Source: a virus
Lineage: Duplodnaviria > Caudoviricetes
Reading direction: 5' to 3' (one strand)
Length of the DNA stretch: 64,000 nt
Virus record (IMG/VR): IMGVR_UViG_3300021400_000252
Program-made: the position numbers and the translations under genes
Part shown: positions 15,590-43,305 of the stretch, piece by piece
How the letters are laid out: each line of letters starts with the position of its first letter
How positions within the stretch are numbered: position 1 is the stretch's first letter
Notes under the pieces: generated by a model
What the model was told of the DNA's origin: nothing
Seen by the model: only the letters and a program-made list of their open reading frames with translations
Database searches by the model: none

Positions 15590-15621
15590 ATTATCACCTC
15601 GATATAATATAATACAACAAA

Positions 15622-15978
15622 TTAAAGTGGTTTTATTTGTTTTATATAGTCTATATTTAACCAACCCTCTCAAATTTTTGTTTGAGTAAATGAATCTCCA
15701 AGGTCAGCTTCAACACCCATAACTTGAATCATTTTAGCAATAGATTGGTTTACAGTTATTTTTAAATATTTTGAACTAGGTTTTCTAGTATTTTCCCATT
15801 CGTAAATTTTATCTGTTAATAATAATTCACTATTTAATTCAATAAGATAGCTTTTACCTACTGAATAAATATCACCAGAGTATTTAGGAATAAAATAAGA
15901 ATTTGTTTCTGGATCGTAAGAAGATGGAATAGCTAATTCTAGAGATAATAATTGTTTTTTAATTATGTCTGAAGGCAT
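15622..15978 (-). CDS. Hypothetical protein (reads through TGA at 15670-15672)
   Basis: Readthrough gives ..TKI-W-EGWLNIDYIKQIKPL* and removes the apparent overlap with the dnaX track ORF; AGGAG RBS. Confidence 0.65.
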
Positions 15979-15988
15979 ATTAATCTCC

Positions 15989-18160: not shown

Positions 18161-18654
18161 TATATCACCTCTTTATTTAATATTTTATCTTTAATTGATA
18201 AAAAATCACACTTTAAGAATGTTGAAAGTTTCTTAGTAGGTACAATTATATAATTATAATCAGTAGATTTTGAAGTAAATAATTTAACATTGATTGATTT
18301 ATTTCCATCATTCTTTATTCTCATAGCTTCTTGGTCAGAAACCATGACAACTAAATCATGGCTCTTATACCAAATAACTACATATCCCATAACATTTTTA
18401 TAAGTTGTTGATAACTTATACATACGTTCTAATTGAGGAAATTTTTGAAAATTTAAAGTATTTTCTTCAGTAACTTTACATTCTAAATAGATTAATTTAT
18501 CTTCTAAAAATGAATAATAATCGGCAGGGTTTTGAGACACATCTTTATATTTTGTTATTTGATCGTATAAACGAGCAATTAAATATTCCGGAAATGATTT
18601 AGACCAGTAATCTTTAAAGTGCTCTTCCCAAGCTTTACCGTAATTATATGCCAT
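18160..18654 (-). CDS. recU: RecU-like Holliday junction resolvase
   Basis: NYGK.WE, P.DY, YLECK, FPQ motifs. Confidence 0.75.
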   Translation of the reverse strand: MAYNYGKAWEEHFKDYWSKSFPEYLIARLYDQITKYKDVSQNPADYYSFLEDKLIYLECKVTEENTLNFQKFPQLERMYKLSTTYKNVMGYVVIWYKSHDLVVMVSDQEAMRIKNDGNKSINVKLFTSKSTDYNYIIVPTKKLSTFLKCDFLSIKDKILNKEVI

Positions 18655-18656
18655 TT

Positions 18657-19799
18657 TTATTCTCCAAATTCAGATCTAGGCCATTCAGGAATTAAGTTAT
18701 ACACATTATTATAAGTAATTAAAATTGGATTTGTTCTAATTACATCAGACTTAATTCCAAACTTAATATTAATTAAATCTGTAGTACAACTATTTAAGAT
18801 TGATTTAATGTCATAAGTATTAATTATAATTGAAATAGGAGCTTCAACCTTAGTTCCAAGTTCTAAGTATTCCATATTCTTATTCTTATCAATAATTGTA
18901 CATTCATTTTCATTTAAAACTAAATTAACTAGAGATGTTGTCTTTTCAAATAAATCGTCTGTTGACTTTCTAAAAGTGTCTAATCTATTTAAAACTTCAT
19001 AAAAAGCTTTAACTGGGAAATCAACATTATGACTATAATCTAAATTAAACATTCTCTTTGAAGATTCATAATTTGATCGAATTCTAGTAATTAAAATATC
19101 ATCAATATTAATATAAGAACATAAATAAACCTTATCTGAAACTAAAGATAACTTAGCTGTTGCATTATCAACTCCATAAGTAGCTTTAACATCCGTAGTA
19201 AATAACTTAAATAGATTTACAAAATGTTCACTTAACATTAATTCAGCATCAGTATTTAATTCAAACTGATTAAAACAGCTACCAATTCCAAATGTAAAAC
19301 ATCCATTCTTTGTTAAATAGAATAAATGATGGATTGGATCATCTGAATCCTTTACTTTCTTTACTTCTTTAGCATTAACATTTAAGATTGATTCCAAATT
19401 AGCTAAAGAAAAATCAAATTCAGAAAGTTTATTTTCAATTACTATCGGTTTAATCTGATTATTTAATTCTCTAACAATATATGGTAATGAATACTTTGAT
19501 TTGCCACTCTTAATTTTTAAAGATGTTTCTTCAAAAATTAATTCAATTTCTTCTGAAGCTAAACTTGAAACTAAAGTTAAGAATGCTTCAGCACCAACTA
19601 CAGCAGATTTATCTTCTGAATTGTCTGTTGGCTCAGCTTCTGCTTTTACAGAAACATAATATTCTTTATTTGTAACGCTTAAATATAATAAATTATCTTT
19701 AGTATTAAGCTTTACATCTTCAATATTCTTAGAATCTACACTACGTGCAGTACTAATTAATGAAACTAATTCTTTAATATTTTCTGTTTTTATTAACAT
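18657..19799 (-). CDS. dnaN: DNA sliding clamp, beta (DnaN)-like
   Basis: 380 aa; L.L.VTN.E and LKIKSGKSKYSL patterns of beta-clamp domain 1; near the clamp-loader genes. Confidence 0.65.
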   Translation of the reverse strand: MLIKTENIKELVSLISTARSVDSKNIEDVKLNTKDNLLYLSVTNKEYYVSVKAEAEPTDNSEDKSAVVGAEAFLTLVSSLASEEIELIFEETSLKIKSGKSKYSLPYIVRELNNQIKPIVIENKLSEFDFSLANLESILNVNAKEVKKVKDSDDPIHHLFYLTKNGCFTFGIGSCFNQFELNTDAELMLSEHFVNLFKLFTTDVKATYGVDNATAKLSLVSDKVYLCSYINIDDILITRIRSNYESSKRMFNLDYSHNVDFPVKAFYEVLNRLDTFRKSTDDLFEKTTSLVNLVLNENECTIIDKNKNMEYLELGTKVEAPISIIINTYDIKSILNSCTTDLINIKFGIKSDVIRTNPILITYNNVYNLIPEWPRSEFGE

Positions 19800-19848
19800 T
19801 ATTTCACCATACTTTCAATATTTTTATTATATATTATTATACAATATT

Positions 19849-21036
19849 TTATTGGTCTTCCCAAACTTTAGGGTCATCTGGATCCCATTCAATAACATCT
19901 TTTTTATTAGTTAAAACATCTATTACTGCTTGTTTAGGTAATTCACAATTTTCTTCAAGGATAATATCTTTTGCTTCTTCGAAAGACTTACCTTTAGATT
20001 CTAATTTCTTAAAATCATCTAAAATGTGGTTAGCTAACTCATCACCATACCAACGTTGAACATTATATGGGTCACAACTCATTGGAACTTTCATATAAGG
20101 TTTAGCTGAATCAATCATAATTTGTGGTAATCTTTCTTCTACTTCTTTATTATAGAAGTCTAGACATTCAACTAATATTTCATCATGTACTGAACAAACT
20201 AATCTAGCACCATATTCTTTTAATTTTTCATCAAAATAAATATTTACCATTGCTATCTTTGTTAAAGTAGCAGCACCACCTTGAATTCTTGCATTAAAGC
20301 ATTGTCTTTCACATTGTGCGATAGTTCCAGTATTTGATATTAAAATATAACCATCTTTTCTAGCTTGTTGTTGGAGCTTTTCAAAAGCTTTATCACCTTT
20401 ACATTCTTCAGCTTTAGCTAAATAAGATTTCATTTTATCAGTAACTAATTCTCTATCTTTACAACCTAAAATCGGATTAAAAGTCTCAGTTTTATTTTTA
20501 GTTGGATCCTCATATCGAATTTCAAATCTAGGTAAGAAATATTTTGGTAAATGTCTACGTCTACCAAACCAGTCTTCGACATAACCATACTTTTTTAAAC
20601 TCTCTTTTGAATAATCAATAGCTTCTTTTACTTTACTGAATTCTGCGAAGAAGTTATCAAGTAGTTCTTGACCTTCCTCTTTTGATTTACCCATTGTCAT
20701 ACCAGCTCTTGCAGCACCCATACCATAAGTAGATGCTAATAAAAGTTTTTTACCAATAGTTCTATTAGCTTTACCTTGTAAATTTTTATGTGTTTTATGT
20801 CCAGCAATAATTTTCTTTCCATCTATTTCTATTTCAGTACCTTCAGGATAAAATTCAAGATTATCTTCATAATTATTCTTTAAAGCACCAGCAGAAATAA
20901 CAGCATATAAGTCTTTACCTTCTAAGTATGCATTTAACATTTTTTCCTCACCAGATAAGTGACATGTTAAACGAGGTTCTTGAGCTGAGAAGTCTGAACC
21001 TACGATTTTTCGTCTAATTCTTGTTTTAATCTTCAT
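19849..21036 (-). CDS. Family A DNA polymerase, C-terminal catalytic part
   Basis: Motif A DFSAQEPR, motif B R..GK..LLA..YG, NARIQG, motif C VHDE; own AGGAGAGG RBS. Confidence 0.92.
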   Translation of the reverse strand: MKIKTRIRRKIVGSDFSAQEPRLTCHLSGEEKMLNAYLEGKDLYAVISAGALKNNYEDNLEFYPEGTEIEIDGKKIIAGHKTHKNLQGKANRTIGKKLLLASTYGMGAARAGMTMGKSKEEGQELLDNFFAEFSKVKEAIDYSKESLKKYGYVEDWFGRRRHLPKYFLPRFEIRYEDPTKNKTETFNPILGCKDRELVTDKMKSYLAKAEECKGDKAFEKLQQQARKDGYILISNTGTIAQCERQCFNARIQGGAATLTKIAMVNIYFDEKLKEYGARLVCSVHDEILVECLDFYNKEVEERLPQIMIDSAKPYMKVPMSCDPYNVQRWYGDELANHILDDFKKLESKGKSFEEAKDIILEENCELPKQAVIDVLTNKKDVIEWDPDDPKVWEDQ

Positions 21037-21046
21037 AATACCTCTC

Positions 21047-22891
21047 CTAAATACTTATAGAATAAGTCTTATTTTGTTCAGAATAGCTTATTTCTTTAAT
21101 CTTGAATAAACCTTCATCTGTAACTAATAAATCATCCTGAGTTAAATCTTTACAATATTTATAACCATTATTTGTTTCTAATTCTTCATATTCATTAATT
21201 TCAAAATTATCTGTAAAATCTTTTTCACCATAAGTAGTTTCACCAACAAATAATGTTCTAATATTTGTACTACCACTTGGAATATTCTGAATATTAATTC
21301 CAGGAACTTCTACTCTTTCCTCTTCATCAGTTCCATAATTATCCACATAAGCAATATCACCACCAGAAGAAAATCTTCCTGTATCAGTTCCTAATTGATT
21401 TAGGTGGAATCTAATACGACCATCTGGCCAATGCTTACATAAGATTGGAATAGTATCAATATAAGTTGAAATTAATTTCATATAACCACGACGTTCTAGA
21501 ATATAACCAATTAATTTTGTAGGTTTTAGTTCATTCATTTCTTCTAGAATATCGCCACCAGTACCACGAGGATTTTCTTTATCAACAACTGGCATTTTTA
21601 AAATATCATATAATAAAATTGACAATTGAACTGGAGAGCTTAATGGAATTGGCCAATTTAATTGTTCAGATTTAGTTGCACCATATTTAAATCTATTACC
21701 TTCTTCATCAACATTTGGATATTTTTTCTTAATATCACTTAACGATAATTTTGTTTTCTTTGGTACATATACAATAGTCTTCTCATTAGCTTCTGGAGTT
21801 AATCTCCATTGATCAATTAGTGGTTTATATTGAGCCATTTCAACTTCAACCTTTTCGTCTAATTGTTCTACTAATCTAGTATATTTCTTCTTTAACATTT
21901 TACCATATACTTCATCAACTTTAATTCCAACTAATTCTTGAGCGGCTGTTGCTAATAAAATATTCATTTCTACTCTTGTAAATAGTTTAAATAGACGTTC
22001 ATTTCCTTCAGCTAATAAAGTTTTTAATTGGAATTCACAAACTTTATTTGTCATTAACGCATCTGTCGCAGCATATAATGCAAAAATATTTGGATCAGAA
22101 TCAGCATAGAAAGTATTTAAATATAAACCTTCTAGATTATATTTAGATTGTGTTTTATCGATAAACTTAGTATATAAGTATTTCAAACCTGCTAAGTCAT
22201 TTTCATCAATTAATCTAGCTGCAAGTTGAGTATCGTAATCAACTGGAACTAGTACTCCACAAGTACAATAAATAACTTCTCTATCGAATTTACCATTAGC
22301 CATAACAATTAATGGACATGGAACATCTTCATTTCTTTTTAATTTATGTTCAATCCAATATTCTAAATATTGTTGTGTTTCAACTTGAGATGGAGCAGTA
22401 AATTCTGGTTGCCATTTAGAACGTAATTCAGCTAAAAAATTAAATTCATCAGCAATATCTTTTTCAGTTAGTTGCCAGTCTAAACGCTTTTTTGTATGTG
22501 GGTCTCTGTGGTTAATAGGAATATATGCTTGTTTACCACCTGGATAATGTAAACATAGACCAATTATTTTACAAGTAATTGGATCCAATGAGTTATTAGT
22601 TTCGGTATCGACAGCTAATACACCAACCTTACAAGCTTCAAGAATATAATTATGAAATTCAGTTTTATCTGAGATAACAACAATATTTTTCTTTTGTTTT
22701 CCTAAAACTTTTAAAACACGTTCATGAATAATTGAAATTCTTTCATCAATAGAGATTTTATTAGATTTTAATACAGTTTTTATATCAGATTCAGTAGCTT
22801 CTTTTGCTTTAATTAAAGCTAATAAATCGTTAATAGATTTTTTCTTATTTTTATTTAGATCTATATCATCAAATAATCCTAAAATATCCAT
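21047..22891 (-). CDS. Family A DNA polymerase, N-terminal part (3'-5' exonuclease, thumb) with a degenerate Hint-like C-terminal tail
   Basis: VDTET, N.KFD, YAATDA, TGRFSS, NIQNIP..IRTLF; ends at TAG. Confidence 0.9.
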   Translation of the reverse strand: MDILGLFDDIDLNKNKKKSINDLLALIKAKEATESDIKTVLKSNKISIDERISIIHERVLKVLGKQKKNIVVISDKTEFHNYILEACKVGVLAVDTETNNSLDPITCKIIGLCLHYPGGKQAYIPINHRDPHTKKRLDWQLTEKDIADEFNFLAELRSKWQPEFTAPSQVETQQYLEYWIEHKLKRNEDVPCPLIVMANGKFDREVIYCTCGVLVPVDYDTQLAARLIDENDLAGLKYLYTKFIDKTQSKYNLEGLYLNTFYADSDPNIFALYAATDALMTNKVCEFQLKTLLAEGNERLFKLFTRVEMNILLATAAQELVGIKVDEVYGKMLKKKYTRLVEQLDEKVEVEMAQYKPLIDQWRLTPEANEKTIVYVPKKTKLSLSDIKKKYPNVDEEGNRFKYGATKSEQLNWPIPLSSPVQLSILLYDILKMPVVDKENPRGTGGDILEEMNELKPTKLIGYILERRGYMKLISTYIDTIPILCKHWPDGRIRFHLNQLGTDTGRFSSGGDIAYVDNYGTDEEERVEVPGINIQNIPSGSTNIRTLFVGETTYGEKDFTDNFEINEYEELETNNGYKYCKDLTQDDLLVTDEGLFKIKEISYSEQNKTYSISI

Positions 22892-26973: not shown

Positions 26974-27525
26974 TTAATTTAGTCCAGTACTTCCAAATCC
27001 ACCATCGCCTCTTGAAGACTTTTCAGTAAAGAACTCATCTGGAGTTAATCCAGAATAAACTTTTGCGCCATTACCAATCTTTACTTCTACCATTTGCATG
27101 ATTTTTTCATCACATTTAATTGTTTGATACTCATCTGAAGTATTAATTACATGATAATGAATTATTCCTTGATAAGAATAATCAATAATACAAGCTCCAA
27201 CAACTAATTTCTTCTTAGTTGCGATACCAGACTTATTAAAATCGATTAAAGCTGAATCACTTGGAATCTTCATATATAATCCAGATGGGATTAATAAATC
27301 AGAATGTGGTGCAATAGTAATTTCACCAGTGGCTAAAGTAAAATAAGAAGTATTATCTGGTACTTCACTAGCCTCATTTAGAAATAATTTTGGATTTTTC
27401 TCAAATAACTTTGCTCTAAATTCCTTAGTGTTAGCAGGAATAAAGCCATCTATACCAGCATTAGCTGGAAATTCGAACTTAGGTTCCTTAACTTGATATT
27501 CATTTGTTAATAAAAATTCTACCAT
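26974..27525 (-). CDS. dut: Trimeric dUTPase
   Basis: AGID, KSG, IIDYSYQG, Q, RGDGGFGSTG; GAAAGGA RBS before ATG 27525. Confidence 0.92.
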   Translation of the reverse strand: MVEFLLTNEYQVKEPKFEFPANAGIDGFIPANTKEFRAKLFEKNPKLFLNEASEVPDNTSYFTLATGEITIAPHSDLLIPSGLYMKIPSDSALIDFNKSGIATKKKLVVGACIIDYSYQGIIHYHVINTSDEYQTIKCDEKIMQMVEVKIGNGAKVYSGLTPDEFFTEKSSRGDGGFGSTGLN

Positions 27526-27571
27526 ATTAAATCCTTTCATATTTTATTTTAATATACATTAAATAATACAA

Positions 27572-27620: not shown

Positions 27621-29228
27621 TTAAAATTGATCTAAATAACCTTTGCTTAAATCTTTTTCTAATTCGTAATCTGTATTATCTAAATCTTCATTAATTAAAT
27701 CATCAAAAATAAAATCATAATTAGGTTTTTTACCTAGCTCTTCTAAGAATTTAGAACGATAAAACATTTTAATTGAATCTATAATATCTTGAGCTGTATA
27801 ACCATCTCAAGCTTTATAGACTTTACTTTGTTCTGTTTGAGTACTTACTTGAACTTCTCGTGACTTATTTAAAACTTGTTCTAGCCAATGTTCTAAAACA
27901 TTATATTGAGTAGTTGTTAAATTATTATTAGGAAGTACACAGTAAGGAAGGATCCAAGAATCTTTACCACCACGACGTCTAATACGAACACAATTTATTG
28001 CATCCATAAACTGACTTCCATCACCATAGTCTAATTCATTAAGTTTTTGTCCATCTTTTAAACTAATATATCCAGCTCTAATTAAATATTTATCTATATC
28101 TGTGTGATTTTGTGTTTTAATTATAGTACCATCTGGCATTATATAGAAACCACCAGTAGTAATATCTCCATTATAACCATAGAAAGACTTAATTTTATCA
28201 ATACAATCATCTTGATTTGCTAAAGCTTTAGATATATCTAACTTATTCCAATATTCTTCTGTTAAATCTTCTAAATCATTATTTTTAGAAATATTTTCTT
28301 CAGTTTTACCTTTATATTTAATGTCATAAACATCAGACACTTTATACATTCCTAAAAGGTCTGTATCTTTAACTTCATCTGGGTTTTTTAGTTCAAATTT
28401 TAGAATTGATCTATAGATATTTTCTTTTTCAGCCTCAGCGACCTGTTCAATTTGATTAATTTTTTGTTTTATATCTAAGTCAGGACATTCGAAAAAATTT
28501 TTCCAAGAATAGCCAGTTCCATTTTCATTCTGTAATGCGCATCTTCAAACTAAAGTAAATGGATTACTCTTACTATCTTTTAATATAAATCCTAAAGTAA
28601 CAATTACGTCATTTTTTAAGTTAGTTTTACTACTTAATGCACGTAAATGCATTGGTAATTTAGTTGCTTTGAGGTCGGCTTTATTTCCAACCATCTTAAC
28701 TTCAACTCATAATCTTCTCGTTTCATTTTTTATTGTATCTGTATCAACAAAAACTAGATCTGGAACACCATAAGTTTTTGTGTTTCCAAAAGTTGTATGA
28801 GTATTGTTTTTTGAATCATTATCTAAGTTTGAATCAGAATTTGGATTTGTTAATTGATTATAAACAGCATCTCCATAAAAACATTTTCCTAAAGAACTTA
28901 GTTTAGTTTCAAAAGCATTTAATAATTTTGATTCGACGATATAAGCGTTATATAAAAATTGAAAACGTTTCCACCATTCCATATTATTAAATGGAGGTCT
29001 ATTTGGGATTGTTTGAGCAAGTGTTTTTATCTTTTTTGCTATTTCTTCAGGAACTTGCATTAAATCATGTCCAGATTTTGTTCGAGAAGCTGGATTTTCA
29101 CTCGATCCAGTCCATGCAAATTCGCCATTTTTAAAAATAGCTTCAAATGCATTAAAAACGTCTTCATATTTTAGTAATTGATCATCTAAAAAATCACTTG
29201 TATTTTCTTCTTGTTCTACAAATTTCAT
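27621..29228 (-). CDS. 535-aa protein with an N-terminal PD-(D/E)XK nuclease-like domain (joins two track ORFs through TGA at 28707, 28545 and 27807)
   Basis: Single continuous frame; readthrough creates PDLVF...RL-W-VEVK; TGCTAAATTA motif upstream. Confidence 0.7.
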
Positions 29229-29278
29229 AATAGTATCTCGCGATCTATAAAATATAATATGTATATAATTTAGCAAAA

Positions 29279-29303
29279 TAAAAAAGAGGCATTAAGCCTC
29301 TTT
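29279..29303 (-). terminator. Intrinsic terminator after the U32 gene
   Basis: aaagaggc-attaa-gcctcttt stem followed by TTTTTTATTTT on the minus strand. Confidence 0.7.
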
Positions 29304-30380
29304 AATATGTTCATCGAAGAACTTATGGCAATAAGTACAAGTCTCACCACATACATAATCATCACAATTATGTTCTGTATTAATGAAGAAATCAATAAAA
29401 CCATCTAATTTCTTATTATCGATATAGAATAATGGATCATGTTCAGCCTCAGTCTTTCCATCTGTAATAGATTCAAGTGGCTTCCATAATTCAATCAAAT
29501 TACCTTCAAAGTTCTCAGTAATATATGCTCTTGCAATCTTAGTAATATATTCAGTTGTTCCAGTTCTACCAGTTACTTTAAAGTGATTAATTCCAATTGC
29601 ATGATACTTCTTAATATCTTCTGGTCTAATCCAACGAGAACGAATCCAAGTTACAATATCCTTAGATCTAGATTGAGTACAGAATTTCATTGGATATTCA
29701 TCTAATAACATCGCATCTTCTCTAGTATGGTTAGTTGCATGACACATATAACAAGAATCTCTATAAATACAATGTGTTGTATAACCATTACCAGCAACAG
29801 CACAGAATTCATTTGCCATTAATTCAAAGATAATATTATTCTTATTACAATAGTCTGCAGCAGCCTTTAAGAATTTAAAGTTTCTATTCTTATTTAAATT
29901 ACAACAGAACTTATTTACTTTGTAAACATCATGGTAATACTTAATTTGAGTTACAGCATCAATATGAGCAATTGTAGATAATTCAATTTCAATATTTGAA
30001 TGAGCTTTATTTCTAATAATCTCAAGCATAATTGGATTAGCAATAGTGATTCTATAAACACCAATTCTCTCTAACCAATGTACAAAATCAATAATTTCTT
30101 GTTCATGATAAGCAATTTGAACTTTAGAACCGTAAGGATAAATTGAATTCATAGTATAATTAAAATTAATACCATTTTCCTTTGCTTTCTTTACGAATTC
30201 TTCAAAATATTCAGCTGAAATATCTTGTACTCTAAATTCAGGTCTTGCAGTTAAAGCTGCATGAGCTCTATCACTACCATAAACTTCTGTAATTTGAACT
30301 TCTGGATTAATCTTATTTAATTCAATAATTTCATCTAATAACTTCATGTCGAAGTTGCATCCTAGTTTATATTCTATCAT
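29292..30380 (-). CDS. Peptidase U32 family Fe-S protein (probable O2-independent hydroxylase)
   Basis: ELSTI, ANEFC...HCIYRDSCY, WIRPED, FKVTGRT, C-terminal C....CG..C.YC. Confidence 0.85.
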   Translation of the reverse strand: MIEYKLGCNFDMKLLDEIIELNKINPEVQITEVYGSDRAHAALTARPEFRVQDISAEYFEEFVKKAKENGINFNYTMNSIYPYGSKVQIAYHEQEIIDFVHWLERIGVYRITIANPIMLEIIRNKAHSNIEIELSTIAHIDAVTQIKYYHDVYKVNKFCCNLNKNRNFKFLKAAADYCNKNNIIFELMANEFCAVAGNGYTTHCIYRDSCYMCHATNHTREDAMLLDEYPMKFCTQSRSKDIVTWIRSRWIRPEDIKKYHAIGINHFKVTGRTGTTEYITKIARAYITENFEGNLIELWKPLESITDGKTEAEHDPLFYIDNKKLDGFIDFFINTEHNCDDYVCGETCTYCHKFFDEHIKEA

Positions 30381-30423
30381 GTTTTACACCTCATTTTAAT
30401 TTATATTATATTATACATTACTT

Positions 30424-31899
30424 TTAAATAGATTTTAAAGCATCTTTTATCATTTTTAATCCAAATTGATAAGAAATATTAACTTTCATAATGTTATCTG
30501 CAATATATGAAGCTAAACAAATCCAAATAACACCAACGACTAATTTATTAAATGGATCTAATGAATAATCAACTAATGGTTTTGGTTTTGAATAATTATT
30601 TTTATCAAAATAAATATAATTTATATTTGCATTAAAATGATCATAACCACTTATACAATAATAAACTTTAGCTAGTTCATAAAATAACGGACCAGAGCCA
30701 ATAGTATGTCCAAAATAAGCTCTTGGATCGATAAACTTGAACGTATCTCCATTAATCATAGTATTTGAACCATTCAAATCTCCGTGGAAAGCTTGATAAT
30801 AATTCTTTGTAGTGTCTTGACTTGAAAAATATCCATTAATTCGGTCGAAACTTTTATTGATTGTATCAATAAAATCTTTTTCATCAAAATCTAATAACAT
30901 ATCTTTAATTGAATTTATTCTTGTTAAAACTTTATCATAAAATTCAACTTTAATATCTTCATAAATAGTTTTTGGAGTTTGAGGACACTTTGGACTAATT
31001 TTATAAATTTGATTTAGTTTATCAATTAAAACATTAACTAAATATTCATTTGATGGATTTAATACTTTGTAAAAATTATTATAACCGTTTAAAAATTCTA
31101 CAGTTAATGAATCATCAGTATTTGAAATTAATTTAGGTGCAATACCATAATCCTTAACTTTATTATACCAAGTAACTTCTTTCTTAATTAAATGAGCATG
31201 AGATTTATCCGAAGTTTTTGTAATAGTATTATTTTCTTTATCTATTGTAAATGTATTAAAATATCTACCTTTAGCTTCAGAATCTTCTTGAGCACCTAAT
31301 TCGTTTAAATAAGTTTCTTTATCTCTTAATTCTAATAAATTAGATTTAATTGGTTTAGCTTTATAATCTAAATCTTTAAATAGCTCAACAAAATCACTAT
31401 ATTCTTTGTTTTCTACAATTGATGATTTATCTTTAATAAAATAAACACCTGGAACATTTCCATCAGTACCACAATTAATTAAGTTATTTGTCTTAGCTAG
31501 ATATCTATAATTACCTTGCTTTGTAAAGATAATATTAGTTGTTAATCTACTAACTTCAATCTTTTCATCTAAGATAATATCGGACCATAAAAATAATAGA
31601 TTAGAATTTGGTAATTGATCTAAGACACTATAAATAGTTTTAAATGAGTTTGTATGGTCAAAACTTTCAATACAAGTAATATTTAGATCATTTGCTTTAA
31701 TATAATTTAAGACTTGTTTATAAAATTTAGTATCAACGATTACATATCGATTATAATCATCAAATAATGAATATGAATTTTTTAAACAAGTTGTTGTTTC
31801 ATTATTTAAAATAAATGGTAAGATAACTTTTGAAAAGTTACTCAATTCTTTATATCGAGTGTTTAGTCCACCAGCAACAATAATTAAATTCTTTTCCAC
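30424..31899 (-). CDS. Sugar nucleotidyltransferase fused to an APH/choline-kinase-like domain
   Basis: IIVAGGLNTR...SK, WSD; C-terminal HGDLNGSN and FIDPR..FG. Confidence 0.8.
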   Translation of the reverse strand: MEKNLIIVAGGLNTRYKELSNFSKVILPFILNNETTTCLKNSYSLFDDYNRYVIVDTKFYKQVLNYIKANDLNITCIESFDHTNSFKTIYSVLDQLPNSNLLFLWSDIILDEKIEVSRLTTNIIFTKQGNYRYLAKTNNLINCGTDGNVPGVYFIKDKSSIVENKEYSDFVELFKDLDYKAKPIKSNLLELRDKETYLNELGAQEDSEAKGRYFNTFTIDKENNTITKTSDKSHAHLIKKEVTWYNKVKDYGIAPKLISNTDDSLTVEFLNGYNNFYKVLNPSNEYLVNVLIDKLNQIYKISPKCPQTPKTIYEDIKVEFYDKVLTRINSIKDMLLDFDEKDFIDTINKSFDRINGYFSSQDTTKNYYQAFHGDLNGSNTMINGDTFKFIDPRAYFGHTIGSGPLFYELAKVYYCISGYDHFNANINYIYFDKNNYSKPKPLVDYSLDPFNKLVVGVIWICLASYIADNIMKVNISYQFGLKMIKDALKSI

Positions 31900-31901
31900 T
31901 A

Positions 31902-32447
31902 CTATCGTTCTCCTTTCAATATTTTATTTAATTCTGTAAGTTCTTCTTTAAAAGAACGTTTTGGATTATAAAAGATTGCAGTCTTCATTGTAGTATTAAA
32001 TAATGAATTTTGATATAAATAATTAATCTTTTCAAATTCATCTTTTGAATATTCTACTTCACACTTTAAAAACTTACAACGAGTTAAATAATCTTCATAA
32101 GATTTATATAAAAAGATAATTTGATAAATATCATATTTTTTAGGCAAAACTTGTAGTGGATAATCAACTGACATAGTTCTATTAAATAATGAAGAATAAA
32201 CAAAATCTGATGTAAATAATCTTGCCATAATAATATTAGAATCAAAACTCATTAATTCATCAGCTTGTCCTTTAAGAAAAGAAACTAACCAAGCTTTGAA
32301 CTCCTCTTTGTTTCTATATTGAGGTGGATTATTCTTTTGAATATATACTTTTAAGCCTTCTATTTCTTTTTCTTCAACTTTCTTTAAAAAAGTGTCTTTA
32401 CCAATACGATCAAAGCCTTCAACAATGATTAGTTTCTTCTTTTCCAT
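31902..32447 (-). CDS. Thymidylate-kinase-like dNMP kinase
   Basis: IIVEGFDRIGKDT P-loop; R...S..VY. Confidence 0.8.
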   Translation of the reverse strand: MEKKKLIIVEGFDRIGKDTFLKKVEEKEIEGLKVYIQKNNPPQYRNKEEFKAWLVSFLKGQADELMSFDSNIIMARLFTSDFVYSSLFNRTMSVDYPLQVLPKKYDIYQIIFLYKSYEDYLTRCKFLKCEVEYSKDEFEKINYLYQNSLFNTTMKTAIFYNPKRSFKEELTELNKILKGER

Positions 32448-32448
32448 A

Positions 32449-33000
32449 TTAATCCTCCATTTGTTCTATCTTAATTTCAATATCTCGAATACGTTTAACA
32501 CATTCGTCATACTTAATCTTAGCTTTTTTAGCGAAATAATTATTACCTAAAGTCACTTCAGTTATACAAAATAGACAACTAGATAACATATCACAAAGAT
32601 ATACAATTAATGACTCTAAAGTCTCTCTATTATTATATTCATCTATAAGTTCTCTAGAACCTGGAAAGAAATTCTTATCATAAAATTCAATATACTTTGA
32701 ATCTAGTTGATCAAAGAATGGTTGAATTTCTGGATTTTCTTGTTTAATATGGAATGGGAAATCACTAATAAAACTTTCTGGTAAATCGTGAATTATTGCC
32801 ATCTTCATTGCTTTATCTACATCAAAATTATAATAATTAGATAAATACATAACAAATAAAGTTACGTAAAAAGAATGAGATGATACAGATTCGTCATGAA
32901 CGTGATATTCAGTTGAAAATCTATTCATTTGATTTAACTTATAAGCTTTTTCAAAATGTTCAAAACATTCATCTAAATTAAAATTTTTTATCTTAACCAT
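32449..33000 (-). CDS. HD-domain 5'-deoxynucleotidase/dNTPase (YfbR-like)
   Basis: R.....ESVSSHSF.V, IIHDLPE...SD, D motif. Confidence 0.85.
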   Translation of the reverse strand: MVKIKNFNLDECFEHFEKAYKLNQMNRFSTEYHVHDESVSSHSFYVTLFVMYLSNYYNFDVDKAMKMAIIHDLPESFISDFPFHIKQENPEIQPFFDQLDSKYIEFYDKNFFPGSRELIDEYNNRETLESLIVYLCDMLSSCLFCITEVTLGNNYFAKKAKIKYDECVKRIRDIEIKIEQMED

Positions 33001-33941
33001 TTTTCTAATGCACCTTCTAACTCATCAATGTTCTTAATATATAATACATTGTCTAACTTTAAAATATGTTGTTTAAACATAACTAATTTACAATCAAAAT
33101 GCTTAAATTCAAAAATACTCATATGCATAATCTCATCAATATCTTCAAGCATTGGAATAATAGGTTTAGATTTTAAAATAGTATTATAAACATCTCGGTC
33201 TGAACTTACGCGTTTATATAAAGTAGAATCAGTTAAAATTCCACTATCATTAACGTCAGTATAAAGTACTGTAAAATTATACTTTTTAGATAAATGTTCT
33301 AAAGCAGTCTTAATTTCTGGGATATGATATCCTGAATCAGATAATCTAAATGGTAAGAAAATTGTTTTCTTTTCTTCCATAACATCAAATAGATCAGAGT
33401 CAACATACCCACGTTCATAAAATTCTAATTGAGATTTTGTTGCATAGAAAGTAATGCACTTCTCACAAATTTCAAAATTAATCTTATCATATTCTTTTAC
33501 AAATGGAACATCTTTATTTATAGTTGTTGAAACTAAATTCCAGAAGATAATTTTACGAGATAATTCTGGTTTAGTTCTTAATAAATTTAAACAAAGATAA
33601 TTTGGTTCTACAACGATATAATCAAAATCGTCATAAGGTAAATTTGGAATTGCTTCATTAGTTCGAGTCTCTTTAGCATTTATTCCATAAAAATCGATAA
33701 ACTCAAAATTAATATTAAGATTTAATCTAGAACAAAAAGCATTTAAATCTTGAATTGAATTAATTGTTGAATTCTTTGGTAAAGTTACAGTTGCTTGACA
33801 ATTGCTCTTTTTAATCTTATATAAAACTCGATTAATATTACCATCAGCAAACACATTATAAAAATTTGTTTCATAACTGCGCATTGAAACAATTGGAATG
33901 AATAGGACGCGCTTGTCCTTAATTAAATGATCTAATTTCAT
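32988..33941 (-). CDS. Putative glycosyltransferase-like protein, first gene of the modification operon
   Basis: Two Rossmann-like halves (VLFIPIVS..; IFLPFRLSD; H.SIFE); operon context; fold inferred. Confidence 0.4.
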   Translation of the reverse strand: MKLDHLIKDKRVLFIPIVSMRSYETNFYNVFADGNINRVLYKIKKSNCQATVTLPKNSTINSIQDLNAFCSRLNLNINFEFIDFYGINAKETRTNEAIPNLPYDDFDYIVVEPNYLCLNLLRTKPELSRKIIFWNLVSTTINKDVPFVKEYDKINFEICEKCITFYATKSQLEFYERGYVDSDLFDVMEEKKTIFLPFRLSDSGYHIPEIKTALEHLSKKYNFTVLYTDVNDSGILTDSTLYKRVSSDRDVYNTILKSKPIIPMLEDIDEIMHMSIFEFKHFDCKLVMFKQHILKLDNVLYIKNIDELEGALEKWLR

Positions 33942-33984
33942 TTAATAAACCTCTCTTTACTTAATTCTAGTATATAATACAATA

Positions 33985-34020
33985 AAAAAGTAGCTAGAAA
34001 CGATGTTCTAGCTATGATTT
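33985..34020 (-). terminator. Hairpin/terminator after thyA
   Basis: tagctagaa...ttctagcta stem followed by a T-run on the minus strand. Confidence 0.6.
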
Positions 34021-34872
34021 TTAAACTGCTATTTCAATTTTTTCTTCTAATTTTGTCGACTTATAATCGATTAATTTAAAATCGTTTTCAGTCATATCTT
34101 TAATTGAAGTCTTTTCTGGGTTAATCCATAAAGTTGGAGCCGGATATTTAGTATTAAATGCAATCTTAGGCATTAAATCCATATGTCTATCATAAATATG
34201 TAGGTTATTAATATAATGAATAAATTTTCCTGGTATTAAATTACATTCTCTAGCTACCATATGAACTAATAAAGCATATTCAATATCATTAAAGCCACCA
34301 GCACCTGCAGCAGCAACTAAATCTCCAGATCTTTGAATTAAAGTCATATTTAATCTACCATCTGTTACGTCCCATAATGTTTCATAACAACATGGAGCTA
34401 AATGCATTTCTAATTCTTCTGATGGATTCCACATTGTGACAATCATTCTACGGTCCATAGGGGAATTTTTTAACTTATAGATAAGATGTTCAACTTGATC
34501 CATAAATTGATAATTACCATTATCTTTATAAACATATTTCTTACCTAATTGATAACCATAAGCTTTACCAATTGAACCTTTTTCATCTGCCCATTGATCC
34601 CAAATATGTGCATTTAAATCATTAATATTATTTGATTTATCTCTGAATAACCATAAAATCTCTCGAACAGCTGTTTTAAAAGATTGAGTTCTTAATGTTA
34701 GGATTGGGAATTCTTTTTCTAGATCATAAGTTCTTACAACTCCAAAAATTTTTGTAGTATGGGCTGGAGTTCCGTCTTCCCACTTAGGTCTTACTTCAAA
34801 ATCTTTATCTGAAAAACCTTCATTAATTAATTTACTATATTCTTGAATAAAATATCTATCTGCCTGTGACAT
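34021..34872 (-). CDS. thyA: Thymidylate synthase (dUMP-type)
   Basis: EILW, IWDQW, YGYQ, RRM...WNP, LAPC, QRSGD...N, HIYDRH. Confidence 0.93.
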   Translation of the reverse strand: MSQADRYFIQEYSKLINEGFSDKDFEVRPKWEDGTPAHTTKIFGVVRTYDLEKEFPILTLRTQSFKTAVREILWLFRDKSNNINDLNAHIWDQWADEKGSIGKAYGYQLGKKYVYKDNGNYQFMDQVEHLIYKLKNSPMDRRMIVTMWNPSEELEMHLAPCCYETLWDVTDGRLNMTLIQRSGDLVAAAGAGGFNDIEYALLVHMVARECNLIPGKFIHYINNLHIYDRHMDLMPKIAFNTKYPAPTLWINPEKTSIKDMTENDFKLIDYKSTKLEEKIEIAV

Positions 34873-34883: not shown

Positions 34884-35063
34884 TTAATATTCATTTTTAG
34901 AAACGTCTAGACAAACACAGTAATCTTTATCAAGTTCATCTGCAAAGATCTGAACTATATAATATTCACCATATTTTGTTAAGTCATATTCATCCCATTT
35001 TTGTTCATCTAGATTAAAAATTACTGGATTCATAATTGTTACATCAAGATCTTTTACTTGCAT
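34884..35063 (-). CDS. Small hypothetical protein (59 aa, MQVKDLDV...)
   Basis: TAATG-coupled to sbcD; fills the gap exactly; not in the ORF track. Confidence 0.6.
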   Translation of the reverse strand: MQVKDLDVTIMNPVIFNLDEQKWDEYDLTKYGEYYIVQIFADELDKDYCVCLDVSKNEY

Positions 35064-36115
35064 TATTTAAAGACCTCCACTAGTTCATATTCTAAAACTG
35101 AATTATTATCTAACTTTGCTTTACATAATTTCTTATATTCATTTTCATAATCACTTAGAGCTAAGTCATCAACATTAAATTCTTCATCTGAAACATAAAT
35201 ATTATTTAATGAATCTATAATTCTTTTTGCAATAATCTTTTGATTATTTTCTAATTTCTCTTTTAATGTTTTTACTAATTCATGTTGACATTTTGTTTGA
35301 ACAACCGCATTGTCTTTGATTAGATCTAATTGTGCAAAATCATCTTCTGTATTTATATCTATCTTATAGAAATTAAATGCATAAGGATTTTCGATAAATT
35401 CAAGATTTAAAGTTTCAGTATCTAAAATTAAAATATTATGTGAATACTTAAATGCATCTTCACCAAAATCTTTTCCAGTTAAATTTCCTAAATTTAAAAT
35501 TTTATCTGTGACCCAAATACCATTATGTAAATGACCATTAATAAATAGATCACAATTTTCCTCAATTTCGTCTTTTTCAAAACCAACTGATGAAATAATT
35601 GGACCCATTTTAATTCCAGCTAAATCATTATGAGAAAAAATTATACGTTTTAAATCTGTTCTTTTTCCAAAATAATCTACTAATGGTTGTCTATCACTCT
35701 CTGGAATATATGGTAAAATACAAATTTCAGTATTATCGATAATAAATTTTGTTGGAGTATTAATTACAGCTCTATCAAATTCACCTTTTGAATTTTTATG
35801 CTCAAGTAAGCTTGATAAGTGGAATGTTAAATCATGAAAATGTGTTTCGTGATTACCAACAATAAAAATCATCGGAATTTTTGACCACTTAATTTCCATA
35901 AACGCTGAAGCCTCAGTATCATTTAAATTTGTTCGATCAAAAAAGTCTCCTAAACAAATTATTTGAGAACAATTATGAATTTCAGCTTGTTCATGAAGTC
36001 ATTGAAGTGACTCTAATTGATTTTCTAGTCTTAATGTAGTATATTTACCTTTTTGAGTTACAATACTGCTTTTTTCACAAAAGTGATTATCAGCATATAT
36101 TAAAATTTTACTCAT
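35063..36115 (-). CDS. sbcD: SbcD/Mre11/gp47-like metallophosphoesterase nuclease (TGA=Trp at 35999-36001)
   Basis: Readthrough restores motif I ADNH in frame with motif II LGDFFD; GNHE, SH, GHLH. Confidence 0.88.
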
Positions 36116-36755
36116 TCTTGTCTTCTTTCTTTTTTTCTACTTTTTCTTCCTTTTTAGGCTCTTCTTTCTTTTCAACACTCCAAGGAGCTAGATAACAAGT
36201 AGCTACATCTGCCATATGTGTTAAAGAGACTAATGGATTAGATTCATAAATTAAATAGATATCAGAAGCACTTTGTTCATTAAATCCACCATGACATAAT
36301 GCTAAAATTTGGTCATCAGTAAAATCTACAAAATGTTTTGCAAGCATATATGATGCAAAAGAATTATTACCATAGACTGGTCTATTATTTGTAACTTTAA
36401 ATGTTAAAACTTCTTCAGTAGCACCTGTATTAGGATTTACTTGTTGTTTATAAAATGGTTCATATAAAGCACATTTATAAAAGTTTCTAAATAATGCAAC
36501 TTTAATAATATCTTCACGTGTAACAGATTCTATATTATATACGTCACGTAATAAAATCATATTATCAAATAGCTTTAATGCTGTTTCACAAAGAGCACCT
36601 GGATAACTTCCATAACCTGTAGAGGTAAAAATTCCATTAAAATAATCGATTCTTTCTAAAAAATCAATTATTTTTTCCATATCAAAATTTAGTTCTGATA
36701 ATAATTCTAAATATCTAACTTTATTGTCAAATCTTTGTTCTTCAGTTAATGCCAT
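36108..36755 (-). CDS. HD-hydrolase-like protein with degenerate metal ligands (start revised to 36755)
   Basis: YPGALCET replaces the usual Y.GGL..H; ALFRN.YK replaces ALLHD..K; retains CHGG and PLV.L.HMAD. Confidence 0.55.
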   Translation of the reverse strand: MALTEEQRFDNKVRYLELLSELNFDMEKIIDFLERIDYFNGIFTSTGYGSYPGALCETALKLFDNMILLRDVYNIESVTREDIIKVALFRNFYKCALYEPFYKQQVNPNTGATEEVLTFKVTNNRPVYGNNSFASYMLAKHFVDFTDDQILALCHGGFNEQSASDIYLIYESNPLVSLTHMADVATCYLAPWSVEKKEEPKKEEKVEKKKEDKNE

Positions 36756-37124
36756 ATTCAAATTTCCTTTCTTAAAACTTACTTTATAATACACTATTTT
36801 TTCCTTAAATTTTAGGTCTAATTTTTTTAAAAATTTATTTTTCAATTAAATTATTTGCTAAATTGTCTGATGCGTGCAAAAATGTGTGCAGAATCCGTAA
36901 AAATTCATAAAAATAAATAAATTATAATAATAAATATAAATATTATTAATAATATATTATAAATATATAAAATATTATATATAATTATAGATAAATATAT
37001 TATAAATATTATATATTATTGTTTTTTGCGAAAAATTTTAGAAAAATTATATGCTAAAATCTTTTTTGTATAAATTGTATTATATTATATACTTCAAAAA
37101 TCAAAGAAAGGAAAAGGCTTTATA
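36756..37124. other. Divergent intergenic region with a 114-bp almost pure A/T tract; candidate replication origin
   Basis: 36907-37020 has one G and no C; aatatattataaatat at 36951 and 36994; coding strand switches here. Confidence 0.5.
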
Positions 37125-39030: not shown

Positions 39031-39858
39031 ATGTTATGGAAAAAACCCACAGGTATGTCTTATTGTGACATGTGTATATGAATAGATAAAAGTGGAGTTA
39101 TCCCAAGAATTGCTGAAAATAAAGGAAAATACCCTAAAGATGAGGATCTAGTTTATAATTATTTGTGGTTATTAACTAAGATGCTTGCAATTAAAAAACA
39201 TATGTTTGTAAATTTCTCAGACTATGATGGGTTTGCCTTCCATGCAGCTTCATTCTATTATTTCCAATTAATTAAGAATTGAAATAATCGTGGAAAATCA
39301 GTTAAAGGAAGAATAATTGGTCCTATTGTTAATATTCTAGATTATGTAAAAGGAACATTACACAATAGACGAGTTGAATATCAAGATCAATCATTTAGAC
39401 AGGTTTTATCTGAAGAAATGAATGATAATAATTTTGATCCATTCCAATTTAAACAACAATTATTATCTGATGCTCGGGCTCAAAATTATTCAAAAACAAT
39501 TACAACAATTACAGAATCAATTAAACAATGTGATTATCTAATCGATGAACTGTTAAAAACAACACCATTTAGGAAAGATTCATCGGATTGGAGAAATATA
39601 AAAATTTCAATTTTATTAAATACACGTAATATATTAGAAAAAAGAAATAAATTAGTTCCGCTTCAACAAGGTGTTTCGGTAACGTTATGACATTTACCAA
39701 AATCTCTTTCTGAATATGTTAGAGTATTAATTAATGAATTCTTTATTAAATTAAAGAGATTAATCTTAGATTGTTTCGAAATGGATAGAGTTGATGAATC
39801 AATCTTAACTAAAATGATTTCAAATCCGGAGGGCACTTATGAAGAAGAGCTTGATTAA
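39031..39858 (+). CDS. 275-aa protein, possible gp55-like phage sigma factor (TGA=Trp at 39079, 39280, 39688)
   Basis: AGGAG RBS and ATG 39031; continuous frame to TAA 39856-39858; helical region-2-like segment; follows the gp46-like gene. Gene is solid, function tentative. Confidence 0.45.
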
Positions 39859-42450: not shown

Positions 42451-43305
42451 ATGGAAGAATTAATTAGAGATATTTCCAAACTTTCTGTTCCGTCAGAACC
42501 AATCTTAGTTTTAGATGAAAATAAATTAGGATTTGATTCAGAAGGAACAGCAGAATTTGATGAAGCTAAAGAAAAATTAATTAAGACTTTAGAAGAAAGA
42601 AAAGATTTATTATCAGTTTCTGCTCCTCAATTAGGAATAAATAAAAGAATCTTTGCTATTCGTTTTAATGATAAAATTAAAATTTTCTTAAATCCTCTAG
42701 TTACAAGTATCTCAAGTGATAAGATCGTAAATTTTGAACCTTATCTTGATACAGATAAGTTTGTATATATTTGTAGACCAAAAGAAATTAAAATCATTTA
42801 TTATAATGAAGATTTAAAATATGAAGATAATCAATTATTAAATGAAGTTGCTTGTGAATTTATGCGTCAATATAATTTATTAGATGGTATTATTCCAGGT
42901 GAAATTTTCAACCATGATTTTGAACAAGAAAAAGTAACTCCAGAAGTTATTCCTATGTTAATTGATGCAACTTATTCTGGTGGTGGATTTATATTTGAAA
43001 AATCTGAGGTTGAAGAGAATTCATTAGAAGAAGTTTCTGAAGCTCTATCTAAGATGTGTGAAATTTATACTTCAATAGTTGATAAGTTTGCAGATTCAGA
43101 AGATAGTGGAATTGAAGAAACAACAAGACTTATTCTTCGTAGATTTAAATTAGACGAAAGAGTTAAATTAGGTCTAACAAGTTATGTTGATATCGAAGGA
43201 TATCAAAGAGCTAAAGCAGCTAAGAGACAAGAAATAATGACTAAGCGTGCATATAGAGCTAAATCATTTAATGATTTTGTTGGTAAAAAGTCTAGGAGAC
43301 ATTAA
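42451..43305 (+). CDS. Peptide deformylase-like protein with a degenerate active site
   Basis: SVSAPQLG.NKRIF, LNP, R...I; EGCLS replaced by EPYLD and QHE.DHL.G replaced by RQYNLLDG. Confidence 0.75.
   Translation: MEELIRDISKLSVPSEPILVLDENKLGFDSEGTAEFDEAKEKLIKTLEERKDLLSVSAPQLGINKRIFAIRFNDKIKIFLNPLVTSISSDKIVNFEPYLDTDKFVYICRPKEIKIIYYNEDLKYEDNQLLNEVACEFMRQYNLLDGIIPGEIFNHDFEQEKVTPEVIPMLIDATYSGGGFIFEKSEVEENSLEEVSEALSKMCEIYTSIVDKFADSEDSGIEETTRLILRRFKLDERVKLGLTSYVDIEGYQRAKAAKRQEIMTKRAYRAKSFNDFVGKKSRRH

Follow-up and report, generated by a model that had tools for sequence, protein, structure and literature searches.

Operon layout and transcription signals

The subject of this report is a putative DNA hypermodification operon of a tailed phage (Duplodnaviria; Caudoviricetes; IMG/VR virus record IMGVR_UViG_3300021400_000252), of which a 64,000-nucleotide (nt) stretch, here called the window, was analyzed. 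The DNA is AT-rich (~27% GC), and from position 33941 to 29292 it carries five co-oriented minus-strand genes, tightly packed between two terminator-like hairpins. In order of transcription they encode a glycosyltransferase-like protein, GT1 (32988–33941, 317 amino acids [aa]); an HD hydrolase (32449–33000, 183 aa), whose gene overlaps the preceding one by 13 nt; a Tmk-like kinase (31902–32447, 181 aa) after a gap of 1 nt; an AfhE-like nucleotidyltransferase/kinase fusion (30424–31899, 491 aa) after a gap of 2 nt; and, beyond a 43 nt spacer, a protein of the U32 family (29292–30380, 362 aa), whose possible role as a hydroxylase is our main concern. An earlier note on this DNA, made by a model from the letters and their open reading frames (ORFs), had described a tightly packed five-gene operon, and its ORFs, strand and spacing are all borne out.

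The hairpin at the thyA/operon boundary (33991–34014, minus strand) has a 9-pair stem followed by CTTTTTTATT and probably separates transcription of thyA from that of the five operon genes. The other, an intrinsic terminator-like hairpin at the U32 stop codon (29283–29303, minus strand; 8-pair stem with 4 GC pairs, then TTTATTTT), marks the operon end, where a closing terminator had been predicted. Seven terminator-like sites are present in the 10.7-kb region, compared with 1.2 ± 1.0 in shuffled sequences. The promoter-like motif TTGTATTATAT lies on the minus strand at 33972–33982, 31 nt before the first ATG, and is followed by a putative ribosome-binding site, AAAGAGAGG. Six exact copies of this motif occur in the window, five of them (33982, 37075, 38999, 55367 and 57754) 30–50 nt before a same-strand start codon, and if one mismatch is allowed there are 25 matches where 11 ± 3.7 are expected; thus the promoter motif that the earlier note had placed near 33974 is indeed there and recurs upstream of other genes. 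The additional motif that it reported at 30410 can be read as TGTATAAT, an extended −10-like sequence at 30410–30417 (minus strand) in the spacer before the U32 gene. A generic sigma-70 scan was discarded as promoter evidence, as it found 83 sites where shuffles predict 84 and is uninformative in such AT-rich DNA.

Relationship to glycosyl-5-hydroxycytosine clusters

Phage DNA that contains glycosylated 5-hydroxycytosine was described only in 2025–2026, and the one known source of its hydroxyl group needs O2. The DNAs of phages RB69 and DLP3 carry arabinosyl-5-hydroxycytosine, and the 5-hydroxy derivative of deoxycytidine monophosphate (dCMP) is made by a flavin-binding ThyA homolog that takes its oxygen from O2; the substitutions N177D, L143D/E and especially D169N (E. 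coli numbering) mark these 5-hydroxy-dCMP synthases (PMC13326640). The known cluster also includes a Tmk-like kinase, a first transferase, a HAD phosphatase, a bifunctional AfhE-type enzyme (the function of the HY126 and RB69 homologs is taken from the same source) and an arabinose-5-phosphate isomerase (PMC13326640). In the published clusters the gene order is kinase, GT1, ThyA-type synthase (RL38J1 214-215-216, DLP3 78-79-80 and RB69 45-46:47-48; PMC13326640), and phage DLP1 has the same order.

Four of the five window genes are homologs of RB69-type cluster genes, as the earlier note's comparison with arabinosylated-cytosine phages would have it. Like the RB69 (gp45–gp55), DLP3 (gp76–83) and HY126 (Afh genes) clusters, the window operon has a GT-B transferase, a Tmk-like kinase and an AfhE-type enzyme and lies in a replication/nucleotide module, and with RB69 and HY126, but not DLP3, it shares a U32 protein of the same subfamily (50–52% identity). 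It differs from all three in that the window lacks a ThyA-type 5-hydroxy-dCMP synthase, an isomerase and a HAD phosphatase and in that a YfbR-like HD hydrolase is added. Nor is the phage backbone related to theirs; it has a family A polymerase, a DnaX-type clamp loader, ~27% GC and TGA read as tryptophan in some genes. The suggestion that this is an undescribed system therefore holds in part: glycosyl-5-hydroxycytosine DNA with a hydroxyl group from a ThyA homolog is already described (PMC13326640), but a U32 route to it is not.

GT1 matches phrog_3891, is 26% identical (E = 4e-11) to gp098 of Klebsiella phage vB_Kpn_F48 (F48 below), and has an AlphaFold2 model (predicted local distance difference test score, pLDDT, 89.6) with a GT-B fold. 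A Foldseek search with this model gave 212 GT-B matches at E ≤ 1e-3, of which the top one is 9ir0_A, the glycosyltransferase of phage HY126, and the others include PimA, MshA and UGT-type enzymes; GT4-like clusters are among its protein-language-model look-alikes, and a PDB sequence search with a GT1 profile returned nothing usable. The earlier note's reservation that 32988–33941 might have no transferase fold is thus removed. In tblastn searches the GT1 matches in T4-like phages of Acinetobacter, Klebsiella and Serratia adjoin the ThyA-homolog gene; phages of Rhizobium and Agrobacterium match too. GT1 belongs to the family of proposed base-proximal DNA glycosyltransferases (RB69 gp46:47, DLP3 gp79 and RL38J1_215).

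GT-B enzymes and nucleoside diphosphate (NDP)-sugar pyrophosphorylases are generic, and an operon of this kind might be imagined to build a surface or virion glycan, or a small-molecule glycoside, rather than to modify DNA. We give this explanation very little credence, because the operon lies inside a replication/nucleotide block among thyA, dut, primase, helicase and polymerase genes, because it holds a nucleotide kinase and a deoxynucleotidase-family enzyme, and because members of the GT1 family adjoin the 5-hydroxy-dCMP synthase where phage DNA carries glycosylated 5-hydroxycytosine, and the best structural match of GT1 itself is the HY126 enzyme; one relative of the operon (L008, below) even adds a T4 α-glucosyltransferase-like gene.

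The kinase matches phrog_761 (thymidylate kinase, E = 2.6e-14), and TIGR00041 and PF02223 match only its P-loop and score under their cut-offs. BLAST comparison with the F48 kinase likewise aligns only the P-loop, so the homology is remote. It is the counterpart of RB69 gp45, DLP3 gp78 and RL38J1_214, and would phosphorylate a modified deoxynucleoside monophosphate. Homologs of it adjoin GT1 and U32 genes in seven of the related contexts discussed below (L003, L004/5, L008, L015, L016, L017 and L018).

The 491 aa protein is 29–32% identical over residues 3–491 to "GlmU" or nucleotidyltransferase (AfhE-type) proteins of 369 phage records, Mosigvirus included, and matches phrog_4098 (E = 1.5e-69); it has no Pfam match. 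The motif VAGGLNTRY (nucleotidyltransferase G-x-G-x-R) and the motifs HGDLNGSN and IDPR (kinase H-x-D-x4-N and D) suggest an N-terminal sugar-1-phosphate nucleotidyltransferase joined to a C-terminal sugar kinase, which would make an NDP-sugar donor. A search of viral contigs for related loci with this protein found none. Compared with contigs L006 (8477–9970) and L014 (3813–5285), this gene shows 68% identity between phage variants, with flanking genes 97–100% identical and with the L014 U32 protein 100% identical to that of the window; the differences extend over the entire protein and are greatest at residues 160–320. Two alleles of the sugar-activating enzyme seem to be circulating in one phage population.

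The HD protein scores 71 bits with the YfbR-like family PF12917 (cut-off 25.9) and 67 bits with PF13023; the NCBIfam 5′-deoxynucleotidase model gives 45.8 bits, under its equivalog cut-off of 122. Its PDB relatives are 2cqz, 1xx7 and YfbR (2paq), and it is probably a member of the YfbR-like 5′-deoxynucleotidase family. Phage homologs occur in nucleotide-metabolism settings in SP-15, in Rhizobium phages and in a Streptococcus phage, where the copy lies beside a thymidylate-synthase homolog. No counterpart is present in the RB69-type clusters, and among the fetched U32 loci only L006 has one. Elsewhere in the window, a gene upstream of sbcD (36108–36845, minus strand) encodes a metal-dependent phosphohydrolase-like protein (phrog_28876, E = 2.6e-7; no Pfam or NCBIfam match), which is another candidate pool hydrolase.

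The earlier note had thyA and dut flanking the operon. The thyA gene (34021–34872, minus strand; PF00303, E = 4.6e-72) does lie directly upstream, but dut, the dUTPase gene (26974–27540, minus strand; PF00692, E = 8.5e-11; phrog_135), is set apart on the downstream side by an ORF (27621–29276, minus strand) that is 551 aa long if its three TGA codons are read as tryptophan and that has no family match. The window ThyA scores 165 bits with TIGR03284, over the equivalog cut-off of 108, has a thymidylate-synthase-type C-terminus, and finds its best PDB match in B. subtilis ThyA (1b02, E = 6e-68). Its motifs are HLAPC, RSGD and GFND, compared with LEYPC, RSQN and QLD in the RB69 type, and at the diagnostic positions 143/169/177 (E. 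coli numbering) it has L, D and N where the F48 and mogra homologs have E, N and D. These canonical residues, together with the TIGR03284 score, rule out the flanking ThyA as a cytosine hydroxylase. The protein also has a 3-residue insertion (AAAGAGG) in the active-site loop before the uracil-binding Asn N177, where it reads DLVAAAGAGGFN and B. subtilis has DMALGNPFN.

Protein-to-DNA (tblastn) searches of the whole 64-kb window found no ThyA-homolog synthase with RB69-type queries, no arabinose-5-phosphate isomerase with the mogra query and no HAD phosphatase (AfhF) with F48 and mogra HAD-like queries, and so confirm the statement that an isomerase and a dCMP-type thymidylate-synthase homolog are missing from the window. 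The isomerase and the HAD phosphatase belong to the supply of UDP-arabinofuranose. As the transferase, kinase and sugar-activation parts are present without the known hydroxyl source, U32 is the only remaining candidate for that source in the cluster, and by homology it is the only candidate hydroxylase in the operon and in the window.

The U32 protein and its gene neighborhoods

The window U32 protein matches PF01136 (37.1 bits, cut-off 22.4) and phrog_5757 (E = 1.8e-133), and over its full length it is 50–52% identical to the product of a "peptidase" gene in 222 records of T4-like (Straboviridae) phages. That gene is of the RB69 gp50 type and lies inside the arabinosylation cluster, and the two belong to the same phage subfamily; hundreds of further database proteins are 54–63% identical to the window protein. 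U32 proteins with known roles are RlhA (5-hydroxycytidine, ho5C2501, in 23S rRNA), TrhP (5-hydroxyuridine, ho5U34, in tRNA) and UbiU/UbiV (O2-independent ubiquinone synthesis), with which the phage protein shares the U32 domain, a triosephosphate isomerase (TIM) barrel and conserved cysteines of the iron-sulfur (Fe-S) type (PMC5727448, PMC6599085, PMC10990095). C5 hydroxylation of a pyrimidine without O2, the chemistry proposed for RlhA and TrhP, is also that proposed for phage U32. The phage proteins differ from these in being only ~13–21% identical to them and in their proposed substrate, a deoxynucleotide or DNA rather than RNA or a quinone, and 123 of them form one monophyletic clade far from E. 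coli UbiU, TrhP and RlhA.

Invariant cysteines in the phage proteins are C159, C193, C204, C210, C213, C234 and C339/C344/C348/C351. Of these, C193, C210 and C234 align with the first three canonical cluster cysteines of TrhP, RlhA and UbiU, and the last four make up an extra C-terminal motif, CX4CX3CX2C. The structural model (pLDDT 92.9) has as its top PDB match 5d88 (E = 3.4e-8), which is given as the only solved U32 structure, and a PDB sequence search with the protein returned nothing usable. The modeled fold, a TIM barrel of generic type, is similar to methylenetetrahydrofolate reductases and aldolases as well.

About 16 U32 contexts outside the T4-like phages were read, with sequence fetched up to 8–10 kb per side. 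In ~11 unrelated metagenomic phage contexts U32 is accompanied by the same transferase and usually by the kinase, and none of these ~11 has an RB69-type ThyA homolog within the fetched sequence. L003 and L016 each have a row of kinase, radical S-adenosylmethionine (SAM) enzyme, GT1 and U32, in which the kinase and the radical SAM gene (L003, 7451–8479; L016, 7980–9011) have swapped positions between the two contigs. In L007 the order is kinase-GT1-U32, with ThyX and a dCMP deaminase close by, and in L008 it is kinase-GT1-U32 followed by a TAGT-like (T4 α-glucosyltransferase-like) transferase, with a uridine diphosphate (UDP)-galactopyranose mutase in addition. Among simpler rows, L020 has U32-GT1-AfhE, L022 has GT1-isomerase-AfhE-U32, and L017 has U32 at some distance from kinase-GT1. 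The gene for 3-deoxy-D-arabino-heptulosonate 7-phosphate (DAHP) synthase joins the row in the remaining contexts. L015 reads U32-DAHP synthase/chorismate mutase-GT1-AfhE-kinase, L018 reads AfhE-isomerase-DAHP synthase/chorismate mutase-U32-GT1-kinase, and L004/5 has GT1-DAHP synthase/chorismate mutase-U32, then the kinase, and then five shikimate-pathway genes-isomerase-AfhE; the P0086 contig has three unnamed genes sized like GT1, kinase and AfhE, followed by U32-DAHP synthase.

Two features of these rows bear on what U32 does. First, L003, L007, L008 and L016 hold kinase, GT1 and U32 where the published clusters have kinase, GT1 and a ThyA-type synthase; U32 in the synthase slot is the pattern expected of a non-orthologous replacement. 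Second, the sugar genes vary beside a constant U32: AfhE and arabinose-5-phosphate isomerase accompany it in L004/5, L018 and L022, UDP-galactopyranose mutase and the TAGT-like transferase in L008, and no sugar-supply gene lies close to it in L003, L007 or L016, while L024 and L026 (described below) have a kinase-methyltransferase fusion in place of a transferase. Such constancy fits a role of U32 on the base and not on the sugar.

An ordinary RB69-type pathway with scattered parts would account for the window as well, if an O2-dependent ThyA-type synthase, and perhaps the isomerase, lay outside the window and U32 were an accessory or back-up enzyme as in RB69. Enterobacterial T4-like phages do carry U32 and the synthase side by side, a pairing that mirrors TrhP/TrhO and UbiUV/UbiIHF. 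Moreover, the window U32 protein is on record on contigs of up to 243,901 bp, which suggests a jumbo phage of ~244 kb, and our searches of its own genome cover 64 kb of this. We nevertheless consider this explanation unlikely, because every published cluster, and DLP1 too, has the synthase immediately next to GT1 and the kinase, whereas the corresponding slot in the window has none and the adjoining ThyA is canonical; because the ~11 other contexts likewise have no synthase in the fetched sequence; and because, should the host be an obligate anaerobe, a synthase that needs O2 would hardly serve the phage.

A second line of evidence concerns prephenate. It is needed for TrhP-dependent ho5U formation, in which TrhP is paired with the O2-dependent TrhO (PMC6599085), and it is the oxygen donor for UbiU/V, with the same proposed for RlhA and TrhP (PMC10990095). 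In four unrelated contexts the gene next to U32 encodes DAHP synthase, which forms a fusion with chorismate mutase in three of them (L004/5, L015 and L018) and stands alone on the P0086 contig. In F48, gp096 (L001, 7158–7403; 81 aa), which lies between the U32 and synthase genes, is a type II chorismate mutase (PF01817, 39.5 bits); the equivalent mogra protein (79 aa) has no Pfam match. This repeated adjacency of U32 to chorismate mutase and DAHP synthase points to a prephenate-dependent hydroxylase chemistry. On the L004/L005 phage contig (50–107 kb), positions 8957–20025 hold genes for DAHP synthase-chorismate mutase, dehydroquinate (DHQ) synthase, shikimate kinase, a fusion of DHQ dehydratase (DHQase) and 5-enolpyruvylshikimate-3-phosphate (EPSP) synthase, chorismate synthase and shikimate dehydrogenase. 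By homology this set is a complete route to prephenate, interleaved with the U32, GT1, kinase, isomerase and AfhE genes.

The distribution of U32 may also follow oxygen. In isolated phages 222 records match, and all 60 of them that were listed across the ranking belong to T4-like phages infecting Enterobacterales or Shewanella. Acinetobacter phages, which grow on strictly aerobic hosts, contribute 57 AfhE and 43 GT1 records, yet are outside the 10 commonest names for U32. No match to PF01136 was found in the whole DLP1 genome. Metagenomic relatives of the phage U32 are in bins labeled Erysipelotrichales, Gastranaerophilaceae, Romboutsia, Oscillospiraceae, Tannerella and Phocaeicola, gut taxa that are obligate anaerobes.

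Proposed pathway and alternatives

On balance we lean toward the view that U32 is an O2-independent, prephenate-dependent 5-hydroxylase of a cytosine nucleotide that feeds a glycosyl-5-hydroxycytosine pathway. The operon would then carry out pre- and post-replicative DNA hypermodification on the logic of RB69, DLP3, HY126 and RL38J1, with another hydroxylase. The gene order, homologies, folds, ThyA signatures and associations in related contexts are directly observed, and the evidence for a hydroxylase role of U32 comes from comparative genomics. The earlier note's idea of a variant glycosyl-5-hydroxypyrimidine pathway is supported by the GT-B fold, by the four homologs among five genes, by the canonical ThyA and by the position of U32 as the only candidate hydroxylase.

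In such a pathway, U32 would hydroxylate C5 of a cytosine deoxynucleotide, most likely dCMP (the substrate level might also be DNA), without O2, by means of an Fe-S center and with prephenate as oxygen donor. The Tmk-like kinase would convert 5-hydroxy-dCMP to the diphosphate and host NDP kinase would convert this to the triphosphate, which the phage polymerase would incorporate. The AfhE-like fusion would turn a sugar phosphate into an NDP-sugar, and GT1 would add the first sugar to the 5-hydroxyl group. The HD enzyme would serve as a deoxynucleotidase for the canonical pool, which we favor as the more likely role, or would stand in for the missing HAD sugar-bisphosphate phosphatase. The presence of thyA and dut suggests that thymine is canonical. 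As the modified base we favor cytosine over uracil, because the U32 subfamily occurs in phages in which cytosine is the sole modified base and because a canonical ThyA and dUTPase are kept. Of the earlier suggestion of a different sugar or base, then, the sugar part remains plausible, and the base is more likely to be cytosine than a different one.

This scheme has precedents. Rhizobium phage RL38J1 (gp214 kinase, gp215 galactosyltransferase 1 and gp216 synthase), whose DNA has hexosyl-5-hydroxycytosine, shares the logic of a hydroxylase, a dedicated kinase and a first glycosyltransferase, but it uses a ThyA-type synthase and not U32, and host UDP-hexoses and a UDP-galactopyranose mutase in place of an AfhE-type enzyme (PMC13326640). 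Phage T4 (gp42 dCMP hydroxymethylase, gp1 deoxynucleoside monophosphate kinase, α- and β-glucosyltransferases and gp56 dCTPase) follows the same plan of modifying the mononucleotide, phosphorylating it, incorporating it and glycosylating it on DNA, and it too has a canonical-pool hydrolase (PMC13326640). The window operon would differ from T4 in placing the oxygen directly on C5 rather than in a hydroxymethyl group, in the family of its base-modifying enzyme, and in having an HD rather than a MazG-type candidate for pool hydrolase.

Several points weigh against this interpretation. The fourth canonical U32 cysteine is replaced in the phage protein, although the invariant C159, C204 and C213 could be substitutes for it, and the NCBIfam UbiU and TrhP models give negligible scores of 16 bits (cut-off 440) and 15 bits (cut-off 534), respectively. 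Vibrio phages, whose hosts are facultative anaerobes, have 17 AfhE-like records, yet they too are missing from the 10 commonest names for U32, and this makes the link with oxygen weaker. The bin labels of the metagenomic U32 relatives are not host assignments. The 64-kb window contains no DAHP synthase gene and no chorismate mutase gene, among its small ORFs or elsewhere, and the rest of the ~244-kb genome may encode a chorismate mutase, an isomerase or a ThyA-type synthase. Direct hydroxylase activity of RlhA and TrhP was not shown (PMC10990095), and RB69 gp50, the U32 protein, is labeled "sugar or heterocycle reductase" in Table 1 of the RB69/DLP3 study, without experiment (PMC13326640). Our literature search turned up no publication that connects U32 with hydroxylation of phage DNA, but He et al. 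(2026, Nat Chem Biol) was outside its reach and possibly assigns or excludes a role for U32; the U32 gene goes unmentioned in the RB69 2018, Thanatos and Durham papers.

The label given to RB69 gp50 is one reason to ask if U32 acts instead on a sugar, on another heterocycle or on host tRNA or rRNA, with the base hydroxyl supplied by an unrecognized enzyme; the generic TIM barrel and its likeness to reductases and aldolases are compatible with this, and the known U32 substrates are RNA and quinone, not deoxynucleotides. Such a role seems to us quite improbable, for U32 is retained in contexts with other sugar-supply genes or with none, its occurrence goes together with that of GT1 and the nucleotide kinase, it occupies the gene-order slot of the ThyA-type synthase, it repeatedly adjoins chorismate mutase and DAHP synthase, and neither the operon nor the window has another candidate for a hydroxylase or hydroxymethylase.

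A sharper version of the preferred hydroxylase interpretation is that this phage modifies its bases with U32 alone. U32 would then be a dCMP 5-hydroxylase that needs prephenate but no O2, the first U32 protein known to act on DNA precursors and a non-orthologous replacement of the ThyA-type synthase, and the sugar would be other than arabinofuranose. This we advance only tentatively, as somewhat short of an even chance; the argument for another sugar is that the isomerase and HAD phosphatase are missing from the window and that the AfhE allele is fast-diverging. If it is true, it would explain O-glycosylated 5-hydroxycytosine DNA (perhaps O-methylated in Bacteroidota-associated relatives) in phages of obligate anaerobes.

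The possible methylated variant comes from contigs binned with Tannerella and Phocaeicola. L024 (5186–9080) and L026 (3044–7137), and by ORF sizes also L023 and L025, have a row consisting of a GP88-like gene, a ~430 aa guanylate-kinase/SAM-methyltransferase fusion, a 265 aa gene and then a phage-type U32 gene, and no glycosyltransferase gene is in the U32 row of L024 or L026. To judge from the family assignments, this row could be a pathway that yields DNA with an O-methylated 5-hydroxypyrimidine, and it again pairs U32 with a nucleotide kinase and with an enzyme that might decorate a hydroxyl group.

Many phages with glycosylated 5-hydroxycytosine, gut coliphages included, replicate without O2, and a U32/prephenate route, if true, would resolve the conflict with an O2-dependent hydroxyl source. 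It would also give a function to the long-mislabeled "peptidase U32" gene of RB69-type phages and would extend prephenate-dependent hydroxylation from RNA and quinones to DNA precursors. What the window adds is a U32 gene without a ThyA-type synthase, beside a canonical ThyA, with an HD enzyme and without arabinose-supply genes. Its phage is therefore a useful test case: as far as the window shows, U32 has no competing enzyme here and would be the necessary source of any 5-hydroxycytosine in the DNA. In practical terms, whether a phage is sensitive to restriction, CRISPR and type IV systems depends on modifications of this kind, which also affect the sequencing and cloning of gut phage DNA.

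The surrounding phage DNA

Megablast of the operon against isolated phages gave no match, and exact 35-mer scans gave zero matches in viral contigs and in genome contigs and only one 5.3-kb contig among metagenome contigs. The minus-strand replication block in the window encodes a split family A polymerase, a clamp, a DnaX-type clamp loader, primase, DnaB, its loader, a UvsX-like protein and SbcCD. The polymerase (19849–22891, minus strand) is specified by two adjoining genes of 614 and 395 aa, and L006, a 97%-identical contig, has the same split. Translation with TGA as tryptophan (code 4) merges 13 long ORFs and lifts ORF coverage to 95%, compared with 90% otherwise. This reading apparently applies to a subset of genes, among them 27621–29276 (the gene directly downstream of U32) and 35063–36115 on the minus strand and 39031–39858 and 57788–59914 on the plus strand; the replication and modification genes specify tryptophan by TGG only, and none of the five operon genes contains a TGA codon. 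The window also carries a phage-encoded peptide deformylase homolog at 42451–43305 on the plus strand (PF01327, E = 3e-12).

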